Assembly (NCBI GenBank): GCA_003507445.1 | Contig: DNVR01000004.1 | Span: 28,243 to 92,242 of the forward strand | Length of the DNA: 64,000 nucleotides | Origin: Candidatus Moraniibacteriota bacterium | GTDB lineage: Bacteria; Patescibacteriota; Minisyncoccia; Moranbacterales; GWC2-37-73 | Direction of reading: 5' to 3' | Shown: positions 3,910 to 62,882 of the stretch, in pieces | Layout: the number at the start of each line of letters is the position of its first letter | How positions within the stretch are numbered: the first letter of the stretch is position 1 | Position numbers and translations under genes: made by a program | The notes under the pieces: model-generated | What the model saw: the letters and a program-made list of their open reading frames with translations, nothing else | Database searches by the model: none | Told to the model about the DNA's origin: nothing

Positions 3910-4581
3910 TTAAAATCCGAAAGGTTTTGAGTCAGAAAGAAATGGTAACATTAGAACTGGATCATTTTTTGGAAAAACAGGAACCACTTCAGTCACTTCT
4001 GCTTTTATTTCTTCTTTAACATCAGGAGTAACAACAACCGAAGGCGGAACTATTTCTTTTGGCTCTTCGATAGGTGCAGAAATTGGTGCGGATTGTTCAA
4101 CTGGCTGAATCTTTTTCTCGACAACTGGCGGAGCAGCTTTTTTTGCAGCAATAACTTTCCTGTCTGAAACAACGGTAACTTTATTGCTAAAATCATTCAA
4201 AGTCACAATGATAGTTTCTCCAGGATGCGCAACTATTGGGCCACTGCTCAAAATCTTTTTTCCTCCCTTAGTAGTTTTGTTTTGTTCGTCTATTCCTCCC
4301 TTAAAAGCTTTTACCACATATGTAGCATCCTTTGGATCATCAAACATTCCAGTTTTTCCATTTTCCCATTCAACAACTTTCCCATCTTTATACAAAACAG
4401 CTTTATATCTGTCTTTTGAGCCATTTGCTATTATTGAATATCTGATAATTGTTCCACCGTGAGACAAAACCCACTGCTTGCTTTTGGCACCATCGCCCCA
4501 CCAAGAATCAGCCGTAGCATTTGGAATTGAAGAAAAAAAGAATGCGAACACGAAAGTTAATATTATATAGCTGTTTTTCAT
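3910..4581 (-). CDS. secreted hypothetical protein (signal peptide; Pro/Val/Glu-rich C-terminal linker)
   Basis: 223 aa. The N-terminal hydrophobic signal is MKNSYIILTFVFAFFFSSIPNATA. The C-terminus is low-complexity PPVVEKKIQPVEQSAPISAPIEEPKEIVPP. I recognised no catalytic motif. Confidence 0.5.
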   Translation of the reverse strand: MKNSYIILTFVFAFFFSSIPNATADSWWGDGAKSKQWVLSHGGTIIRYSIIANGSKDRYKAVLYKDGKVVEWENGKTGMFDDPKDATYVVKAFKGGIDEQNKTTKGGKKILSSGPIVAHPGETIIVTLNDFSNKVTVVSDRKVIAAKKAAPPVVEKKIQPVEQSAPISAPIEEPKEIVPPSVVVTPDVKEEIKAEVTEVVPVFPKNDPVLMLPFLSDSKPFGF

Positions 4582-4658
4582 AATAGTGTATTCATCCTAA
4601 TTACATAGAAATATACACTACAACTAACAAAAACTTTCAAAAAACAACTTGGGGGGGT

Positions 4659-21101: not shown

Positions 21102-21175
21102 GTGTCATTCCCTTGAAAAAGGGAATCTAGGTCCGCATTTAAACCTGGATTCCCGCCTCCGCGGGAATGACAAAG
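21102..21175. repeat. GC-rich nested-hairpin element (gtcattccc...gggaatgac family)
   Basis: tgtcattcccttgaaaaagggaat ... attcccgcctccgcgggaatgaca. The outer termini pair and two internal hairpins are present. Related copies are at 24138-24178, 32893-32985 and 62792-62882. Confidence 0.55.
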
Positions 21176-21180
21176 TGGAA

Positions 21181-24137: not shown

Positions 24138-24178
24138 CCCCCACTTGTCATTCCCGCGGAGGCGGGAATCCAGACCTG
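24138..24178. repeat. truncated copy of GC-rich element (reverse orientation of 21102-21175 right half)
   Basis: tgtcattcccgcggaggcgggaatccag is identical to the reverse complement of 21147-21174. Confidence 0.5.
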
Positions 24179-29779: not shown

Positions 29780-31198
29780 TTATTTTTGACTGTTAATATA
29801 TTGTTCGTAAACAGGGTTGCCAGGATGTTTTACTTTGTCATATTGATTAAGATATATCGCTTTGAACACAAAAAAGAAAATAACAACCACAAAAGTCACA
29901 AACAACAAATTGAGATTTTTCTTGACCCATTGAAATTTGAAACTAAATTTGGCCTTATAAAACGTAAAGATTAAAAGAGGCACAATTGCCAAGAAATATC
30001 TTCCTTGCACACCGGAAACTTTTTCTGCTCCGATCTTACTCCATCCCAAGTAAAGAGCCAGATAAATGAGCGTGAAATTCATCAAAAATACCGTCAGCAT
30101 AATTGCTCGTTGACGAAAAGACAATCCAACTTCTTCATCGGTATTTTTAATAAAAATAAGACCGCCAAAAAAAGTCAGCACATACAGCCAACTTTCAAAT
30201 GACGCTCCATTTCCAACCTTGAAAATCATTCCTTCCAGATGAGGAACAAACCCGCTTGCGCCATAATATGAGTCAAACACTGCATACAAAAAATGAAACG
30301 GTGCAAAAATAACAAACTTCATTTGCTCGGCAGGATTTGTCCAATCGGGCGGTGCAATATCCTTAAAAATAGAACGAATAACCAAAAGAAAAGCCGCATT
30401 GATTGCAACGAAGCCCAAGGTGGTCAGCCAATAATTTCTTTTATTTTTGAATTTACTCATTGGCAAAATGAAAATCAAAAAGGACAAAGCAAAATATCCC
30501 AATTTAACATTCAATCCGAAAAGAGACAGAGCCAAAAGCAAAACAAGATTTTTTTTGGTCAAAAAATTTTCCCTTTCCATCGCCAATTTCAAAATATATG
30601 CCAAAAATACTGCCGCAAAAGCAATTGCAACACCATCATAGCTCAGCGACGCAAACTGACGAATTGTCATTGGCAAAAGTCCCACAATCAAGAAAATTAT
30701 TTTTCCAAACGGAACAATCTTAATCGCCCAATAAAACAAAGCTATCGATAAAAGCAATGTTAGGACACGCGCCAAATAAAACGAAGCCAGCGCCGAAAGC
30801 CCAGCTCCCTGTCCCAATTTCAAACCTGCTGCTTGAGAAATATATCCAAACGGAGTTGATGGACAATTAGCTCCACCAATGACACCTTTTTCAGCATTAT
30901 CACTTTCAAACAATTTTTCTTTCAGCTTTGCCACTACAATCTTTTTTTCTTTAATACCATCGTATTTAATTGGCTTAATCTGATCAGGCAAAACTGTTGC
31001 AGTCAAGGGAATTTCGTCTTTTCCAGTGCAATACAAATATCCCTCCGCGATTGACCAAGCTTTCCAATAATGTGCGTGTTCATCTGGCACCCCAGCAAAA
31101 GGTGGATTAACAAAGGCCATCAACAAGCCAAAAGACAACGCCAAAGACAAATACAAGTTTTCCTTTTTCGCCAAAAAGTTTCGTAATTTCAATTTCAT
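29780..31198 (-). CDS. DUF2142-like GT-C membrane protein
   Basis: 472 aa. An N-terminal loop AGVPDEHAHYWKAW carries the DE motif. The protein is polytopic. Confidence 0.45.
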   Translation of the reverse strand: MKLKLRNFLAKKENLYLSLALSFGLLMAFVNPPFAGVPDEHAHYWKAWSIAEGYLYCTGKDEIPLTATVLPDQIKPIKYDGIKEKKIVVAKLKEKLFESDNAEKGVIGGANCPSTPFGYISQAAGLKLGQGAGLSALASFYLARVLTLLLSIALFYWAIKIVPFGKIIFLIVGLLPMTIRQFASLSYDGVAIAFAAVFLAYILKLAMERENFLTKKNLVLLLALSLFGLNVKLGYFALSFLIFILPMSKFKNKRNYWLTTLGFVAINAAFLLVIRSIFKDIAPPDWTNPAEQMKFVIFAPFHFLYAVFDSYYGASGFVPHLEGMIFKVGNGASFESWLYVLTFFGGLIFIKNTDEEVGLSFRQRAIMLTVFLMNFTLIYLALYLGWSKIGAEKVSGVQGRYFLAIVPLLIFTFYKAKFSFKFQWVKKNLNLLFVTFVVVIFFFVFKAIYLNQYDKVKHPGNPVYEQYINSQK

Positions 31199-31330
31199 TT
31201 TGTTGTTTAAATGATATTATTTTTTAATAATATCACATTAAAACCCCTTTTACTAGCCAACAAAACAACTAAAATATGGCTGCATAAAACTATCACTAGA
31301 CATCTAAAATATGGGTGCTATACTTTTTAT

Positions 31331-31522
31331 ATGAGAATAACTAAATGTGACATTTGCAAAAAAACAATCAAACGAGGAACTGAACGCCTCGATTTAAGTT
31401 ATAGCAATATTAAGACTTTTGCTTCTTTTGAACTTTGCACTATTTGCAGTGTTCCGATAATAAAATTTTTGCAGGATAAAAAGCTAATCAAAATTGAAGA
31501 AAACAAAAAAGATGAAAAATAA
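31331..31522 (+). CDS. small zinc-ribbon protein (CxxC...CxxC), hypothetical
   Basis: 63 aa, MRITKCDICKK...ELCTICSV. I chose the internal ATG of track ORF 31211..31522. Confidence 0.35.
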   Translation: MRITKCDICKKTIKRGTERLDLSYSNIKTFASFELCTICSVPIIKFLQDKKLIKIEENKKDEK

Positions 31523-31907
31523 CAATCAACTTAATAAAGAAATTACACTTAGCGCTATAGCTGAACTTATTGAAGCTAGTGCAAAGAAAACCTCTGCGGC
31601 ATTGGAAGCTAAGATTGAAGCTAGTGCAAAGAAAACCATAGAAACACTAGAAGCAAAAATTGAACAGTCTGCTGAAAATTTAGCAACGATGACCCAAAAT
31701 CAATTTCTGGAAATAGATGCACGATTTGATAGTGTAGACAAAAGATTTGATAGTGTAGACAAAAGATTAGATAACGTTGAAATAAGATTAGCAGGTGTTG
31801 AAATGAAAGTTGACCGTATTGAAGGTGAAATTATCAAGAAAGTTGACACGGTTAAATATAACACAACCAAATATCGCGTAAAAAAACTGGAAGAAAAATT
31901 CGCATAA
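31512..31907 (+). CDS. coiled-coil protein with RFDSVDKR repeats (hypothetical)
   Basis: The track start 31494 is TTG; the first ATG is at 31512. Heptad-rich sequence includes tandem RFDSVDKRFDSVDKRLDNVEIRLAGVE. It is a paralog of 32223..32645. Confidence 0.5.
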   Translation: MKNNNQLNKEITLSAIAELIEASAKKTSAALEAKIEASAKKTIETLEAKIEQSAENLATMTQNQFLEIDARFDSVDKRFDSVDKRLDNVEIRLAGVEMKVDRIEGEIIKKVDTVKYNTTKYRVKKLEEKFA

Positions 31908-31934
31908 AAAACATCCATACACAACGAAACTAAC

Positions 31935-31962
31935 AAAAAACTGGCATAGTACCAGTTTTTTG
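31935..31962 (+). terminator. weak rho-independent terminator
   Basis: AAAAAACTGG catagta CCAGTTTTTT, a 5-bp stem flanked by A6/T6. Confidence 0.4.
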
Positions 31963-32070
31963 ATGCTCAAATTCCCTTCCACATCCACTGGTGAGTATTA
32001 ACCAGTCAATACTCACCCCATATCTAATATATTAGCCTTATTTAAGCCATATATAGACGCTTTTTGGTAT

Positions 32071-32166
32071 ACTCAAATTCCCGTCCCCATCCATATATTA
32101 ATTAAAGGATGTGATAATGTTTTAACTCAAAAGAGACATTCCTGCCGAGAACGGTCCTCGGCAAGT
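32071..32166. repeat. composite repeat copy A (AT palindrome catccatatattaattaaaggatg + GC hairpin ccgagaacggtcctcgg)
   Basis: It shares both modules, and the linker ttttaactcaaaagRgacattcct, with copies at 32691-32856 and 33204-33293. Confidence 0.5.
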
Positions 32167-32173
32167 TTACCCA

Positions 32174-32207
32174 TCAAAAAAATCAGAACTTAGTTCTGAT
32201 TTTTTCC
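32174..32207. terminator. bidirectional rho-independent terminator
   Basis: AAAAAA ATCAGAAC tta GTTCTGAT TTTTT, located 15 nt beyond the stop of the minus-strand gene 32223..32645. Confidence 0.6.
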
Positions 32208-32222
32208 TTCCATGTATTGATT

Positions 32223-32645
32223 TTATTGAGTTGCGAAAGTTGCTTTTTCCAATTTAAATATCCGCTTTTCATGTTTATCTATAACCTCTTTCTCAGCTTT
32301 ATTATCAAGTTTTTCTTTTATTTCCTTAACATCACTCTGTGTATCTTTTATGTCGATTTTCATTTCAACGATATTTGCTTTAACATAATCCATATCTTCA
32401 ATCAAAAAATTAACATTCTCTTCAACACCACCAAGTCTAATATCAAATCTTTCAAATTTTTCTTTCAAATCAGAAACTTCCGATTTAACTTCATTCAATC
32501 CTCTTTTTACATCATCCAACCCCTCGCCAAAAACCTTAAAATCTCCTCGAATTTCTTCAAGAATTGCAACGACTTGATCCTTTGGCATTGAATCTTTTTT
32601 TGTTTCTTGTTTTTTTCCCATAAATTTATTATAACATCGAGCCAA
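32223..32645 (-). CDS. coiled-coil protein (paralog of 31512..31907), hypothetical
   Basis: The track start 32645 is TTG. ATG at 32621 (MGKKQETKK) is favoured because a TTGACG-16-TATAAT promoter ends 6 nt upstream, giving a leaderless mRNA. It shares the RFD..RL.GVE motif with its paralog. Confidence 0.5.
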   Translation of the reverse strand: MARCYNKFMGKKQETKKDSMPKDQVVAILEEIRGDFKVFGEGLDDVKRGLNEVKSEVSDLKEKFERFDIRLGGVEENVNFLIEDMDYVKANIVEMKIDIKDTQSDVKEIKEKLDNKAEKEVIDKHEKRIFKLEKATFATQ

Positions 32646-32655
32646 CTTTCGTCAA
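32628..32655 (-). promoter_or_regulatory. sigma70-like promoter (TTGACG-16-TATAAT), leaderless start
   Basis: Minus-strand reading is ttgacg aaagttggctcgatgt tataat aaattt ATG. Confidence 0.45.
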
Positions 32656-32690
32656 ATACTTCCACCTACGCTCTACCTACAATAAAACCA

Positions 32691-32856
32691 CGTCCATATA
32701 TTAATTAATTGATGTGAGGTATTTTTAATTAACCATTCCTGCCGAGTACGGTCCTTGGTGAGAATCCACATATGCGGCGCCACTAGCTGACGACCGCACA
32801 GAAGTGGCGCCAAATAGATTATGTGTGCCTAGACTGCCGAGGACCGTCCTCGGTGG
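32691..32856. repeat. composite repeat copy B (AT palindrome + two GC hairpins + extra GGCGCCACT...AGTGGCGCC hairpin)
   Basis: cgtccatatattaattaattgatgtg; ccattcctgccgagtacggtccttgg; gactgccgaggaccgtcctcgg. Confidence 0.5.
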
Positions 32857-32892
32857 ATTAATCTTATCGAATTAACTGAAATAGCAGTACAT

Positions 32893-32985
32893 TGTCATCC
32901 TCAGCTTGCCGTGCCCGCCTATGGAGGGACTGGGGATCCAGAGTGATGCCTGGCCATGGATTCCCTTTTTCAAGGGAATGACAAA
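32893..32985. repeat. GC-rich nested-hairpin element (gtcat...gggaatgac family)
   Basis: tgtcatcctcagcttgccgtgcccgcctatggagggactggggatccagagtgatgcctggccatggattccctttttcaagggaatgacaaa. It is about 90% identical to 62792-62882, and its 3' hairpin equals the reverse complement of 21104-21126. Confidence 0.55.
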
Positions 32986-33203
32986 CTACTATAGATTCAG
33001 TTATTTTGGTATTATTAAAATCATTTAGTGTCAACTTCGCTGTACATCATTATTGTATTCAGTGTCAAGTATAATTTACACTGATTTTTATTTGCAGTAT
33101 ATTACCCTGTCTTAGCTCTTTTTTCATCTTTTTTATTGTTTTCCATTTTTATTATTTATGATGATATTATATCACTTCTTTATTTTATTAACAAGATAAA
33201 CAA

Positions 33204-33293
33204 AACACATCCATATATTAATTAATGGATGTGTTTTGTTTTAATTCATTTTAACTCAAAAGGGACATTCCTACCGAGGACCGTCCTCGGTGG
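33204..33293. repeat. composite repeat copy C (11-bp-arm palindrome aacacatccat...atggatgtgtt + GC hairpin ccgaggaccgtcctcgg)
   Basis: The hairpin ends 4 nt before the stop of minus-strand gene 33295..34449. Confidence 0.5.
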
Positions 33294-33294
33294 T

Positions 33295-34449
33295 TTACTC
33301 CTTATTAATAACTTTTTCCAAAAGATTGATTGAATGATTCCAAGTCCAATTTTTTACTGTCTTATAGCCACCTTCAATTAATTTATTCTTCAATTCCCTA
33401 TCATTTATCAACTGCTGGATGGCTTTTTTTGCACCCTCCACATCCCCCTGTTCAACAACGAGTGCATTTTCACCGTCAACAATATATTCGTCATAGCCAG
33501 TCACTTTTCCAACCACCACAGCACAGCCACAAGCCATTGCTTCCATAGGTGGACCAAAAAATCCTTCAATTCTACTCATCTTAAGAAAAATATCGCAAGA
33601 TGAATAAATTTCATTCATTTTATCAAATGGTACGTTTTCAAAAAACTTATCGTATTTCCAATTACTTTTAGGTTTTCCATTGTTACTCACAATCCAAAGT
33701 TCGCAGTCCAAATCCTTTACTGCATTATATGCATCTTCCATACCCTTGTATGGAACATCTATTGAGCCTTCAAGTAAAATTCTAGGCTTTTCTGTTTTAA
33801 CTATTAATGGCTTTGTTTTATAAAACAAATTTTCATCCAATCCATTGGGAACATAATAAGATTCTTTACCACAATCATTTTTTAACCATTTCTGAATCCA
33901 AAGTGCTTCAGTCATATACTCCAAGGGAAGTGAATATGTTTTCTTTATAATACTGCAAAGATCTTCATTATCTGAAAAAAATCTGCTCTCATCTGATTGC
34001 ACAAAATATATTTTTCTTCTTGTTTGAGCCATATCAACAGTAAATGCAGTGCTATATGCAGTTGCAATCAAAATATCAATCTCGCCACTTTTTAATATTT
34101 CTTTTGTTTTATTAAATGGCAAAATTTCAATTTCTTGATCAGGAAACCAACTTGCATCATTTTTATTTGTGAGAGAAAGAATTTTTACATCATATCCCCT
34201 CTTTTTTAATCTATTTGCGTGTTGAAAAATTACCGCAATACCTCCAGAAATTTTTACACCAGGAACAAGATAATAAATTTTCTGCTCTTTACCAGTTTTA
34301 TTTTTAACAGTATTAATAATGGATTTTCTGTTCTCATTAAATTTTTTCCATCTAGAATATTCTCCATCAAAAAAGAAACGGGTTTTAATTGTTTTGCTAT
34401 TTATATATAAATAGCACTTTTTAAAAAATAATATTGAAAATGAATCCAT
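33295..34449 (-). CDS. GT4-family glycosyltransferase
   Basis: 384 aa. The C-terminal domain IEGFFGPPMEAMACGCAVVVG is the GT4 E-x7-E region. Confidence 0.65.
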   Translation of the reverse strand: MDSFSILFFKKCYLYINSKTIKTRFFFDGEYSRWKKFNENRKSIINTVKNKTGKEQKIYYLVPGVKISGGIAVIFQHANRLKKRGYDVKILSLTNKNDASWFPDQEIEILPFNKTKEILKSGEIDILIATAYSTAFTVDMAQTRRKIYFVQSDESRFFSDNEDLCSIIKKTYSLPLEYMTEALWIQKWLKNDCGKESYYVPNGLDENLFYKTKPLIVKTEKPRILLEGSIDVPYKGMEDAYNAVKDLDCELWIVSNNGKPKSNWKYDKFFENVPFDKMNEIYSSCDIFLKMSRIEGFFGPPMEAMACGCAVVVGKVTGYDEYIVDGENALVVEQGDVEGAKKAIQQLINDRELKNKLIEGGYKTVKNWTWNHSINLLEKVINKE

Positions 34450-53544: not shown

Positions 53545-54585
53545 CTATTTTTCAATATTTTTAAATTTATAGTAAGTCGCTTTTCCATTTCCCTGTTTTT
53601 CAATAATATTCAAAGCTATCAGCTTTCTAAAATCAAGATTTCTTGTTGGCTTTGCCCTATCAATCAATTTTGCATAGTCACGATCACTGATAAAGCCATG
53701 TTTTTCAATATATGCGATAATTTTTTTATGATAAGACTTCAACTCATTTTCTGGAGATGCAGTTTCTTGGTTCAGTTGCTTTTCAACCCTAAGCAGCTCA
53801 TCAATGATTCCATCCGTAAAATATTCAAGCCAAGAAGTGAAGTCTATGTCATTTTTAATGTCATAATAGTTGCCAAGTAAACCAACTTCTTGAAAATATT
53901 TGCTCACATTTTGATTGTAATAATTTTCAAAACTGAAAAGATTGAACGTGTTGAGACCCATCTTGGCAAGCAACACCTTTGTTGCCAAGCGGGCAGTTCG
54001 TCCATTTCCATCAATGAAGGGATGAATGATGACAAATTGTTTATGAAAAATACCCGCCAAAATCAATGGATCGATTTTATTTTCATTTTTAATCACATAT
54101 TCAAAAATTTCATTCATCAATTTTGGCACTTCCAAATGTTCAGGCGGAAGATAGACCGTTTGACGAGTTTTTGGATTGTTGACAAAAACTGGCTCCTGCC
54201 TCAATTTCCCTGACCTATTTTTTTCAATCAAATCCTGAGTGACAGTTTTTTGAATTTTCAAAATCAAAGACAAGTCGAAAATCTGCTTTTCATCGGCAAT
54301 CAATTCATTCAATTCAATCAATGCCTTATTGTAGTTCAAAACTTCTTTTTCACTGTCGCGAATATGTTCGGGCTTATTTTTCAAAATCCTCTTTACGTCA
54401 GTGAGCGGCAATGGATTACCCTCAATACTCGTGGAAGAAAAAGCTGATATTTCTCTTGCTCTTTTTTCCAGTTCAGCCAGAATTACGCCAGAAAAACTCC
54501 GACTGTTCAGGCCAGTGACTATTTCCGTTATTCTTTTAATATTGGCCAATAACTGACCAGAAATGATATATTTTGGATGAAACAT
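53545..54585 (-). CDS. Fic/DOC-family protein (AMPylator-type, class II with N-terminal inhibitory motif)
   Basis: The core motif HPFIDGNGRTARL (HPFx[DE]GNGR) is present. The N-terminal STSIEGN matches the (S/T)xxxE(G/N) inhibitory helix, and a C-terminal winged-helix-like domain follows. The track start 54591 is TTG; the first ATG is at 54585. Confidence 0.85.
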   Translation of the reverse strand: MFHPKYIISGQLLANIKRITEIVTGLNSRSFSGVILAELEKRAREISAFSSTSIEGNPLPLTDVKRILKNKPEHIRDSEKEVLNYNKALIELNELIADEKQIFDLSLILKIQKTVTQDLIEKNRSGKLRQEPVFVNNPKTRQTVYLPPEHLEVPKLMNEIFEYVIKNENKIDPLILAGIFHKQFVIIHPFIDGNGRTARLATKVLLAKMGLNTFNLFSFENYYNQNVSKYFQEVGLLGNYYDIKNDIDFTSWLEYFTDGIIDELLRVEKQLNQETASPENELKSYHKKIIAYIEKHGFISDRDYAKLIDRAKPTRNLDFRKLIALNIIEKQGNGKATYYKFKNIEK

Positions 54586-54599
54586 TAGCAATTTTTAAA

Positions 54600-62791: not shown

Positions 62792-62882
62792 ATCATCCTC
62801 AGCTTGCCGTGCCCGCCTCTGGAGGGACTGAGGATCCAGAGTGGTGCCTAGCCCTGGATTCCCGTTTTCACGGGAATGACAT
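62792..62882. repeat. GC-rich nested-hairpin element (near-identical to 32893-32985)
   Basis: atcatcctcagcttgccgtgcccgcctctggagggactgaggatccagagtggtgcctagccctggattcccgttttcacgggaatgacat, located between two GT4 genes. Confidence 0.55.

Follow-up and report, generated by a model that had tools for sequence, protein, structure and literature searches.

Repetitive extragenic palindromic (REP) sequences and the transposases that go with them (REP-associated tyrosine transposases, RAYTs) have been described mainly in Proteobacteria and in a few other phyla. Genomes of the candidate phyla radiation (CPR) are tiny and are usually considered repeat-poor. Here we analyze a 64,000-nucleotide stretch of DNA from a Candidatus Moraniibacteriota bacterium (contig DNVR01000004.1; hereafter the window, with positions counted from its first nucleotide) and, within it, an island in which a zinc-ribbon gene and two coiled-coil genes (cc1 and cc2) are packed among GC-rich hairpins and an AT-rich palindrome. 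In our assessment, this island is probably a junction zone of small accessory gene cassettes joined by short palindromic modules, with the GC hairpins being REPs.

The closest described system is that of REPs, or REP doublets forming hairpins (REPINs), together with a RAYT (Nunvar et al. 2010, PMC2817692; Bertels and Rainey 2011, PMC3116915; Di Nocera et al. 2013, PMC3733652). In the REP/RAYT arrangement, the transposase gene is flanked by its own palindrome, and transposase and palindrome vary together (Nunvar et al. 2010, PMC2817692). REPs sit downstream of genes and between convergent genes (PMC3733652, PMC2817692), as do those of the island. More than 100 copies per genome are typical of classical REPs (PMC2817692), and two paired REPs in one long hairpin make up the REPIN form (PMC3337134).

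The GC hairpins and a RayT-like transposase family

Three copies of a composite element of approximately 90 nt, made up of the AT palindrome, a linker, and a GC hairpin, lie on the plus strand at 32082-32171 (copy A), 32685-32768 (copy B), and 33195-33300 (copy C); an earlier reading of the letters without database searches (the sequence-only reading) had noted three copies. A fourth GC hairpin, B′, stands at 32837-32853. The 16-mer TCCATATATTAATTAA of the AT palindrome is identical in all three copies; for each of the composite motifs, zero chance matches are expected, and in the 64 kb no match falls beyond the island. All three copies point the same way, at spacings of 603 and 517 nt and with unrelated content in between.

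Loci with cc2 homologues formed the starting set for the comparison of the GC hairpin; these and all other loci labeled L### are related stretches of other genomes that were compared with the window. In L007, the gene upstream of cc2 encodes a 215-aa Y1_Tnp (IS200-like) protein with HUH and Tyr motifs (Pfam 26 bits, cut-off 23), and this gene is bracketed at both ends by CTCGAGGACCGTCCTTGAG, two further copies of which lie nearby. The protein has at least 2971 relatives, all belonging to PF01797 and many from Moranbacteria; where they carry names, these are "transposase" or "REP element-mobilizing transposase RayT" (IMG). A profile of this protein family retrieved 80 RayT-like loci from Joint Genome Institute (JGI) metagenomes, 76 of them with both flanks. 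AGGAC(C/G)GTCCT palindromes stand beside the gene in five of the six closest JGI relatives (53-62% identity; L031-L033, L035, and L036), on both sides in three, and the sixth (L034) and more distant relatives are flanked by other palindromes. In 57/76 loci, a sequence of 12 nt or more recurs on both sides of the gene; most of these shared sequences are hairpins (stems of 7-12 bp), and they vary from clade to clade.

The link to the window comes from a covariance model (R1) built from 22 foreign REPs and no window sequences. In the 64 kb, R1 picks out exactly the four island hairpins, with 31.5, 29.7, 25.8, and 15.8 bits (E 1.4e-7 to 0.022), and the next match has an E value of 0.37. Because a model made from foreign copies alone finds only these four, we assign the GC hairpins to the RayT-flanking REP family. 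Over 230 kb of related loci, R1 matched solely at the 3′ ends of cc1 and cc2 cassettes. In the alignment of foreign REPs, the apex AGGAC(C/G)GTCCT is near-invariant (8/11 columns fully so), and the four outer pairs covary. Paired cells make up 88.6% of the stem, and 24 cells are changed on both sides, as compared with 8.9 in shuffles (0/500 shuffles reach 24); the covariation score is 0.32 versus 0.12 when shuffled, and it is lost on sliding the partner. At the level of sequence, then, the GC hairpin is shown to be a REP, the same palindrome flanking the gene of a RayT-like HUH/Y1 transposase in related Moranbacteria. The sequence-only reading had suggested terminator, attenuator, or small RNA modules for these hairpins, a suggestion that we abandon: they carry no U-tract and match no Rfam family. 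Its motifs were found again in relatives, with a covarying stem in the case of the GC hairpin. When window copies are included, the non-Watson-Crick cells of the stem comprise 12 G-U and 3 A-C, a mild bias that corresponds to the minus strand of the window. This G-T wobble bias predicts that a RayT-like activity would be found on the strand reading ...CCGAGGACCGTCCTCGGCAG....

On the minus strand, REP hairpin A (32133-32173, core 32145-32161; R1 25.8 bits, E 1.1e-5) marks the 3′ edge of the homology blocks of both gene cassettes described below, and REP hairpin C (33262-33302, core 33274-33290; 31.5 bits, E 1.4e-7) lies 4 nt past the stop codon of a glycosyltransferase gene. Hairpins B (32742-32758) and B′ lie 95 nt apart and form a doublet at 32742-32853 (-60.2 kcal/mol, z -6.8), in which they pair as a 112-nt hairpin around a 78-nt GC-rich spacer with a hairpin of its own. 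R1 favors opposite strands for the two (B′, 29.7 bits, plus; B, 15.8 bits, minus), and the spacer is unique among the sequences compared. The doublet has the REPIN form of two REPs approximately 100 nt apart in one long hairpin, in a single instance.

Some leads on the composite were dropped. It first appeared better conserved (91%) than neighboring genes (81%), but with insertions and deletions set aside, identity is 89-97% per segment everywhere. A strict pattern, CATTCCTRCCGAGNACSGTCCTYGG, had zero matches in public genome and metagenome contigs and proved too strict, as the homologous L116 copy has CCAAGG and not CCGAG. A likeness of "catccactg ... aatttaagccat" to the region upstream of cc2 in L004 was unreported by BLAST and is estimated to be at chance level.

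Two gene cassettes of one build

The zinc-ribbon/cc1 cassette opens with the promoter TAGACA-16-TATACT (31297-31324, plus strand), which forms its conserved left edge. The zinc-ribbon ATG at 31331 stands 6 nt past the -10 box, which points to a leaderless mRNA, and the arrangement ATCACTAGACA...TGCTATACT...ATG is common to L111, L118, and L120. What had been noted as a tiny zinc-ribbon open reading frame (ORF) turned out to be a genuine conserved gene (31331-31522, plus strand; 63 aa, two CxxC motifs): the protein is identical at 63/63 residues in L111 and L114 and has 47% identity in L118, with four Cys invariant across genomes. It is followed by cc1 (31512-31907, plus strand; 131 aa), counted from the ATG at 31512 where the ORF listing begins at TTG 31494. 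The cc1 protein belongs to a Moranbacteria family of its own (60-70% identity), and more distant matches carry DUF7310. A bidirectional intrinsic terminator of A-tract/stem/U-tract form closes the gene unit (31934-31962; -12.5 kcal/mol, z -4.3).

Positions 31286-31987 and 32061-32161 of the window align with L116 3775-4542 at 89-97% per segment. Loci L111-L116 represent a different Moranbacteria genome (in part from the same site), and the genes around their zinc-ribbon/cc1 cassette are unrelated to those of the window. The homology to L116 opens at 31286 with ATCACTAGACA, at the promoter, and closes at 32161, the last base of the REP; the ATG in L111-L116 likewise stands 6 nt past TATACT and would be leaderless. 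A third gene context is provided by L120, whose cassette shares this left edge and has a REP on its right.

The second unit is carried on the minus strand. Its gene, cc2 (32223-32621; 132 aa), was recognized as an ORF with homologues, and the family occupies 22 genome loci, the named ones mostly Moranbacteria or Parcubacteria. A leaderless promoter, TTGACG-16-(TG)TATAAT (32628-32655), stands 6 nt ahead of the ATG at 32621; the sequence-only reading had pointed it out, and the arrangement is kept across the family (L004, L006, L010, L011, L012, and L014). The cc2 terminator is again intrinsic and bidirectional (32176-32206; -13.9 kcal/mol, z -4.7), so both of the terminators proposed earlier have an A-tract, a stem, and a U-tract. 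By pairwise BLAST in eight loci, homology spans from approximately the -35 box to just beyond the terminator, and between L004 and the window it reaches the REP. A REP-like hairpin, matching or degenerate, lies within approximately 140 nt of the cc2 stop codon in L004/9, L006/13, L007, L010, L011, L014, and the window, and a second one is often found upstream of the cc2 promoter. In L007 and in L006/L013, cc2 has a RayT-like gene or pseudogene as its neighbor.

Both gene units are thus shown by these alignments to share one build, consisting of a promoter, one or more leaderless genes, a bidirectional terminator, and a REP. Homology sets in at the promoter and ends with the REP, the neighbors being different, and the REP travels with the cassettes.

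Three further features were seen at or near the zinc-ribbon/cc1 cassette. A 24-nt partial duplicate of its promoter region (ACAAAACAACTAAAATATGGCTGC versus ACTAGACATCTAAAATATGGGTGC, 31260-31318) lies just beyond the left edge and may be a trace of the arrival of the cassette. The cc1 gene contains tandem repeats of 45 nt (31569-31658) and 21 nt (31714-31755). In L111, L117, and L122, a 121-aa 23S_rRNA_IVP/Avd-like gene is located two genes upstream of the zinc-ribbon gene and cc1.

The two coiled-coil families

The coiled-coil genes had been described as a convergent pair of paralogs. They are convergent, and a distant relation is plausible, but support for paralogy is weak: the two proteins belong to separate families and align over 39-52 residues only (BLASTP E 0.003 over 39 aa; hhalign probability 64%). 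A zinc-ribbon gene precedes a cc1-type gene in some genomes and a cc2-type gene in others, and a convergent cc2/cc1-like pair recurs in L010 and L014. Since both families pair with a zinc-ribbon gene and the convergent pair recurs in two genomes, a distant common origin of cc1 and cc2 is plausible. No specific fold or function could be retained for cc2; a profile search of PDB returned generic trimeric coiled coils only, and Pfam and NCBIfam matches were below cut-offs. Homologues of cc2 have variable counts of 7-residue RLGSVEx repeats and other short repeat units, and variation by whole repeat units in both families suggests length-variable rods.

More distant members of the cc2 family occur in other surroundings. 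In seven Moranbacteria/Parcubacteria loci (L017, L018, L020, L021, L025, L026, and L028), such a gene immediately precedes the 16S rRNA promoter and leader, approximately 300-1050 nt before the 16S start, and the leader has a boxA-like GAACTTTAACAA; in L017, a zinc-ribbon homologue stands ahead of the cc2-family gene. Relative to L021 and L017, the 16S leaders of L020 (6420-6455) and L025 (6366-6410) contain extra GC-rich hairpin insertions, so small palindromic insertions also invade rRNA leaders in these genomes. A supposed likeness between the composite and the 16S leader downstream of distant cc2 homologues shrank to a 12-mer (p ~0.02 per comparison) and was rejected. Beside a cc2 homologue and a frameshifted RayT-like gene, L006 (8683-11958) and L013 carry a set resembling a diversity-generating retroelement, with RVT_1 (393 aa), bAvd (142 aa), and a Fib_succ_major protein.

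The AT palindrome and its linker

The AT palindrome is built of arms ACATCCAT and ATGGATGT around the spacer ATATTAATTA, and its 16-mer is identical in every full copy from two genomes. In the window, copy A (32087-32112) and its linker, TTTTAACTCAAAAGAGACATTCCT, extend over 32087-32144 on the plus strand. Copy B (32690-32741, plus strand) has degenerate arms and a shortened linker. Copy C (33198-33241, extending with its linker at 33249-33272 over 33198-33272; -22.3 kcal/mol, z -6.9) has 22-nt arms that match at 91% and takes an A-tract/stem/U-tract form, which is seen in neither A nor B; from this form, copy C probably terminates the GT4 glycosyltransferase gene next to it. Outside the window, two copies occur in L111-L116 and a half copy in L117/L122, and the palindrome is absent from approximately 600 kb of other CPR loci compared. 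It recurs solely beside the zinc-ribbon/cc1 cassette.

In L120, the tail GATGCTCAAATTTCC... joins the REP directly, without the approximately 55 nt of palindrome and linker, and L124 has neither palindrome nor REP. Because the tail can meet the REP without it and L124 lacks both, the palindrome with its linker is a separable insertion/deletion module of approximately 55 nt. In L111, two direct repeats of approximately 50 nt, each with a T-run, the CTCAAATTCCC tail, and the palindrome, bracket a 1.2-kb segment that holds one minus-strand gene with a weak winged helix-turn-helix (wHTH) and a phosphoribosyltransferase (PRTase)-like domain. The second L111 copy of the palindrome lies approximately 130 nt upstream of the start codon of this gene. 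In copies C and B, the palindrome stands approximately 14 to 50 nt upstream of the -35 box of a minus-strand promoter; no promoter is adjacent to two of the copies. The stem shows no covariation among copies. Operator, recombination core, and terminator or structural element are all candidate roles.

A palindrome of the same arm and spacer geometry (N10), ACTTCCAT-ATATCCATTT-ATGGAAGT, with a compensatory A-T to T-A change in the arms, was seen at 6615-6640 of L014. It sits after a terminator in another Moranbacteria-like metagenome-assembled genome (MAG), and its homology to the AT palindrome is uncertain.

Other noncoding DNA of the island

Between the cc1 terminator and composite copy A, two 32-nt direct repeats, TTTTKGRTRYWCTCAAATTCCCKTCCMCATCCA, surround a 74-nt insert (31957-32093, plus strand; repeats at 31956-31987 and 32062-32093). 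They correspond to the direct repeat ctcaaattcccKtccMcatcca of the sequence-only reading, and its GGTGAGTATT/AATACTCACC hairpin, also genuine, falls within the insert. L111 has a single repeat copy and no insert; relative to it, the window has a 106-nt duplication or insertion at this point. The insert has a homologue in L117 (4198-4312), ahead of a DUF3800 gene (score 83 versus a shuffle maximum of 28), and one base pair of the GGTGAGTATT/AATACTCACC hairpin is changed compensatorily relative to L117.

The ORF-free stretch upstream of the GT4 gene is a patchwork. A doublet of a second palindromic family (ATTCCC...GGGAAT type) occupies 32894-32982 on the plus strand, inside a 41-nt inverted repeat at 32858-33018, and is the gtcat...gggaatgac element recorded earlier. 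This family, GTCATTCCC-N8-GGGAATCC, occurs as singlets and as REPIN-like doublets at 21104-21180 (minus), 24148-24172 (plus), 32894-32982, and ~62792-62880 (plus) and in L117 at 4529-4620. The copies at 32894-32982 and ~62792-62880, the two long variants, share 92% identity, and their 3′ hairpins differ by a compensatory change from G-C to T-A. Its core, ATTCCCGCGGAGGCGGGAATC, is one base off the Neisseria REP ATTCCCGCGCAGGCGGGAATC (bioRxiv 10.1101/2021.07.10.451892). Next to this doublet, an orphan fragment (33010-33094, minus strand) is homologous to the promoter/operator region of an AAA_14/DUF4143 gene of L004/L009 (score 78 versus a shuffle maximum of 29), with no gene after it. By promoter prediction and repeat comparison, 33110-33194 (minus strand) contains a promoter-like TTGTTA-17-TATAAT (33194-33166) and a 14-codon remnant whose start copies the junction of the zinc-ribbon end and cc1 start (35 nt, 86%). 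Positions 33136-33186 are homologous to the DUF3800 promoter of L117 (score 72 versus a shuffle maximum of 42), but here too the gene itself does not follow. No pseudogene was found in 32646-33294 by tblastn with the cargo genes AAA_14, zeta toxin, DUF3800, and wHTH-PRTase of related loci. Since the 650-nt stretch is made up of REPs and promoter fragments that match noncoding DNA of other CPR genomes, we interpret it as REPs and orphaned promoter fragments and not as an RNA gene.

Genomic setting

The window has approximately 30% GC and lies within a 251,926-bp scaffold of the ANAN16-1 groundwater metagenome. According to Pfam, it is filled almost unbroken by glycan and envelope biosynthesis genes (GT2, GT4, PMT-type GT-C, DUF2142, epimerases, a flippase, and ABC/Wzt components), and the 51 larger ORFs scanned gave no match to a recombinase, integrase, or transposase family. 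The island is flanked by a DUF2142 gene (29780-31198, minus strand; Pfam E 5.7e-45) and by the GT4 glycosyltransferase gene (33295-34449, minus strand; Pfam), the two flanks that the sequence-only reading had proposed. Homologues of the island genes come from Candidatus Moranbacteria and Parcubacteria MAGs. A Fic/DOC-domain gene was seen at 53545-54591, within a glycan/ABC-transporter cluster.

The island itself, described earlier as repeat-dense, ORF-poor, and structured, is present where it had been placed, and its local GC reaches 52-57% against roughly 30% for the genome. Its two ORF-free stretches, of 315 and 649 nt, are free of complete ORFs of at least 60 aa, except that a 66-aa antisense ORF (31788-31988) overlaps the first of them by 81 nt. 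A tRNA/tmRNA search found none of either. Rfam 15 gave zero matches at gathering score in the window, and with E up to 10, the island (31850-33350) gave sub-threshold chance matches to miRNA-like hairpins only.

Discussion

We favor the view that the island is a junction zone of accessory cassettes, and its working can be pictured as follows. The REP would act as a single-strand DNA hairpin recognized in trans by a RayT-type enzyme encoded elsewhere. Cassettes would be cut, copied, or recombined at the REPs and at the shared modules (the T-run/CTCAAATTCCC tail, the AT palindrome, and promoter fragments), which would account for the direct repeats and for the gene-less promoter debris. Between closely packed units, whether convergent or tandem, the hairpins would probably also stop or insulate transcription. 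The AT palindrome is a separate module that has been co-duplicated with the REP.

Several findings weigh against this view. No RayT homologue was found by tblastn in the 64-kb window. REP copies are few: there are four in 64 kb, all within the island, and density is approximately one per 8-16 kb in the closest relatives (L004, L111, and L120), although it rises to four per 3-5 kb in L007 and L011. Where classical REPs are inverted, those flanking RayT-like genes are often direct by their central base (L007, L033, and L036), and the 57 loci show a mix of direct and inverted. No clear GTAG/CGTC tag (the tag as given in PMC3733652) was seen; the foot of the hairpin shows only a G(C/T)AG, in the four copies of the window and in several more. 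The zinc-ribbon/cc1 cassettes of L117 and L124 have no REP at all. No transposition or recombination event was caught in the form of paired empty and filled sites with exact junctions, and the AT palindrome with its linker is left unexplained by the REP model.

Other explanations were weighed. The AT palindrome might be the core site of a tyrosine-recombinase (lox/dif/att-like) system, and the island an integrase-less cassette array served in trans, in the manner of an integron or of integrative mobile elements exploiting Xer (IMEX); the 8-10-bp inverted arms around an asymmetric 10-bp spacer would form the site, and the direct repeats would be attL/attR-type scars. We regard this as unlikely, even though the nonpalindromic spacer ATATTAATTA keeps one orientation in every copy and conservation is strict, with the 16-mer identical in all copies of two genomes and no more than one mismatch separating the 15-mer CATCCATATATTAAT from the half copy found in another. 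The direct repeats flank discrete pieces, namely the 1.2-kb one-gene segment of L111 (~50 nt) and the 74-nt segment of the window (32 nt); the cargo between copies differs by genome (cc2, the wHTH-PRTase-like gene, or DUF3800); and the module is either complete or missing altogether (L120 versus L111). Against this stand the lack of a recombinase among the 51 larger window ORFs (Pfam), with none annotated in related loci, the lack of an R″/R′ integron core site, and the small number of known copies (~six), with neither an empty site nor a circular intermediate seen. By manual comparison, the palindrome also appears unlike the 28-bp Firmicute/proteobacterial dif consensus, with approximately 6/11, 3/6, and 3/11 matches over its 11-6-11 layout. 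The same palindrome was read earlier as an operator for a dimeric regulator of the adjacent small genes. Its conserved sequence would suit that role, as would the position of B and C upstream of the -35 boxes of minus-strand promoters (~45 nt and 14 nt), that of an L111 copy ~130 nt upstream of the wHTH gene, and the zinc-ribbon protein encoded next door. But the distance to promoters varies, copy A and the first L111 copy have no adjacent promoter, the cc2 promoter does without a palindrome in L004, L006, L010, L011, and L012, and the zinc ribbon and cc1 do so in the otherwise identical cassettes of L120 and L124. With no recognizable DNA-binding regulator encoded in the island and no covariation in the stem among copies, we hold the operator to be very unlikely.

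It could also be argued that the repeats do nothing, a single REP-plus-palindrome segment having been copied three times by local duplication and deletion in a decaying region. All composites do fall within 1.2 kb in one orientation, with none elsewhere in the 64 kb; copy B is degenerate; gene-less promoter fragments and the 14-codon remnant show decay; and the identity of the composite to L111 (93%) is not above that of neighboring genes (89-97%). Yet another genome has this composite at the same position and a second copy 1.2 kb off, and the REP family comes with a cognate transposase and shows covariation in its stem. The sequences between copies are mutually unrelated, which argues against simple tandem duplication. 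Functionless debris seems to us quite improbable. An RNA-level explanation, with the ORF-free stretches as the source of structured small RNAs or of cis-regulatory RNA elements, is the hardest to credit, and we give it hardly any weight. The fold of 32680-33020 (z -6.9 on the plus strand, -5.05 on the minus strand), the locally raised GC (52-57% in a ~30% GC genome), and the bias of G-U over A-C would be compatible with function as RNA. The stability, though, is due to palindromic DNA repeats that fold on both strands, Rfam returned no match at gathering score in the window and chance-level ones only at E up to 10 in the island, no promoter/terminator pair consistently brackets the composite across genomes, and the 78-nt spacer hairpin is unique.

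A cassette junction zone with REPs would have some wider consequences. A covarying REP family and a large RayT-like family are now tied together in CPR genomes, and a literature search, which cannot prove absence, turned up no paper linking REP/RAYT with Patescibacteria, Parcubacteria, or Moranbacteria. REPs at the edges of accessory cassettes offer a handle on how reduced genomes shuffle genes within surface-glycan clusters. When AT-rich CPR genomes are annotated, structured islands of high GC should not be called noncoding RNA genes, and short ORFs across them are spurious. A more far-reaching proposal is that Moranbacteria exchange self-contained cassettes at a dedicated hotspot, through REPs (with RayT in trans) and the AT palindrome (as a lox/att-like core), in an integron-like manner without an integrase. 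We rate this as distinctly unlikely; if it were true, the zinc-ribbon/coiled-coil pair would be possible resident accessory proteins.

Comparison with known systems

Several families of elements resemble the island in part. Like integron attC arrays and Xer-dependent elements (IMEX and pdif modules), it has directly repeated palindromic sites that separate short one-gene units of varying content and orientation. Unlike attC arrays, it has no integrase and no RYYYAAC/GTTRRRY cores, and there are two separate hairpins in place of one long imperfect attC; unlike Xer/dif elements, its AT palindrome has no recognizable dif-like XerD arm. With IS200/IS605 elements and the transposase-less palindrome-associated transposable elements (PATEs) that carry passengers, the island shares one-strand hairpins at the ends of a short gene-bearing unit, varied contexts, and, in some genomes (L007), an adjacent Y1 transposase gene. 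The zinc-ribbon/cc1 and cc2 blocks differ from these in sharing a hairpin at the 3′ edge only, the left edge being a promoter, and the comparison with IS200/IS605 features identified no target-site signature or cleavage tetranucleotide. The bacterial interspersed mosaic elements (BIMEs) of enterobacteria are similar in that REPs and conserved non-REP motifs form an intergenic composite of approximately 100 nt. The island has no regular REP alternation, its AT-rich partner motif has no known binding protein, and its copies number a handful.

REP/REPIN-RAYT comes closest, with differences of its own. The host here is a CPR lineage (Moranbacteria); the island copies are few and clustered at cassette ends, whereas classical copies are found by the hundreds genome-wide; the flanking REPs are often direct and not inverted, with no clear GTAG/CGTC tag; and the NCBIfam RAYT model scores only 25.6 bits against a cut-off of 80. 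What the two have in common is a short extragenic palindrome (~20-35 nt) located 3′ of genes and between convergent genes, a Y1/HUH transposase gene (IS200 superfamily) flanked by its own palindrome, which changes with the transposase clade, and, in one doublet of the island, a fold resembling a REPIN hairpin of ~110 nt. Consequently, what we describe is an element of a known kind that has turned up in a new host group, and not a new RNA or regulator system.

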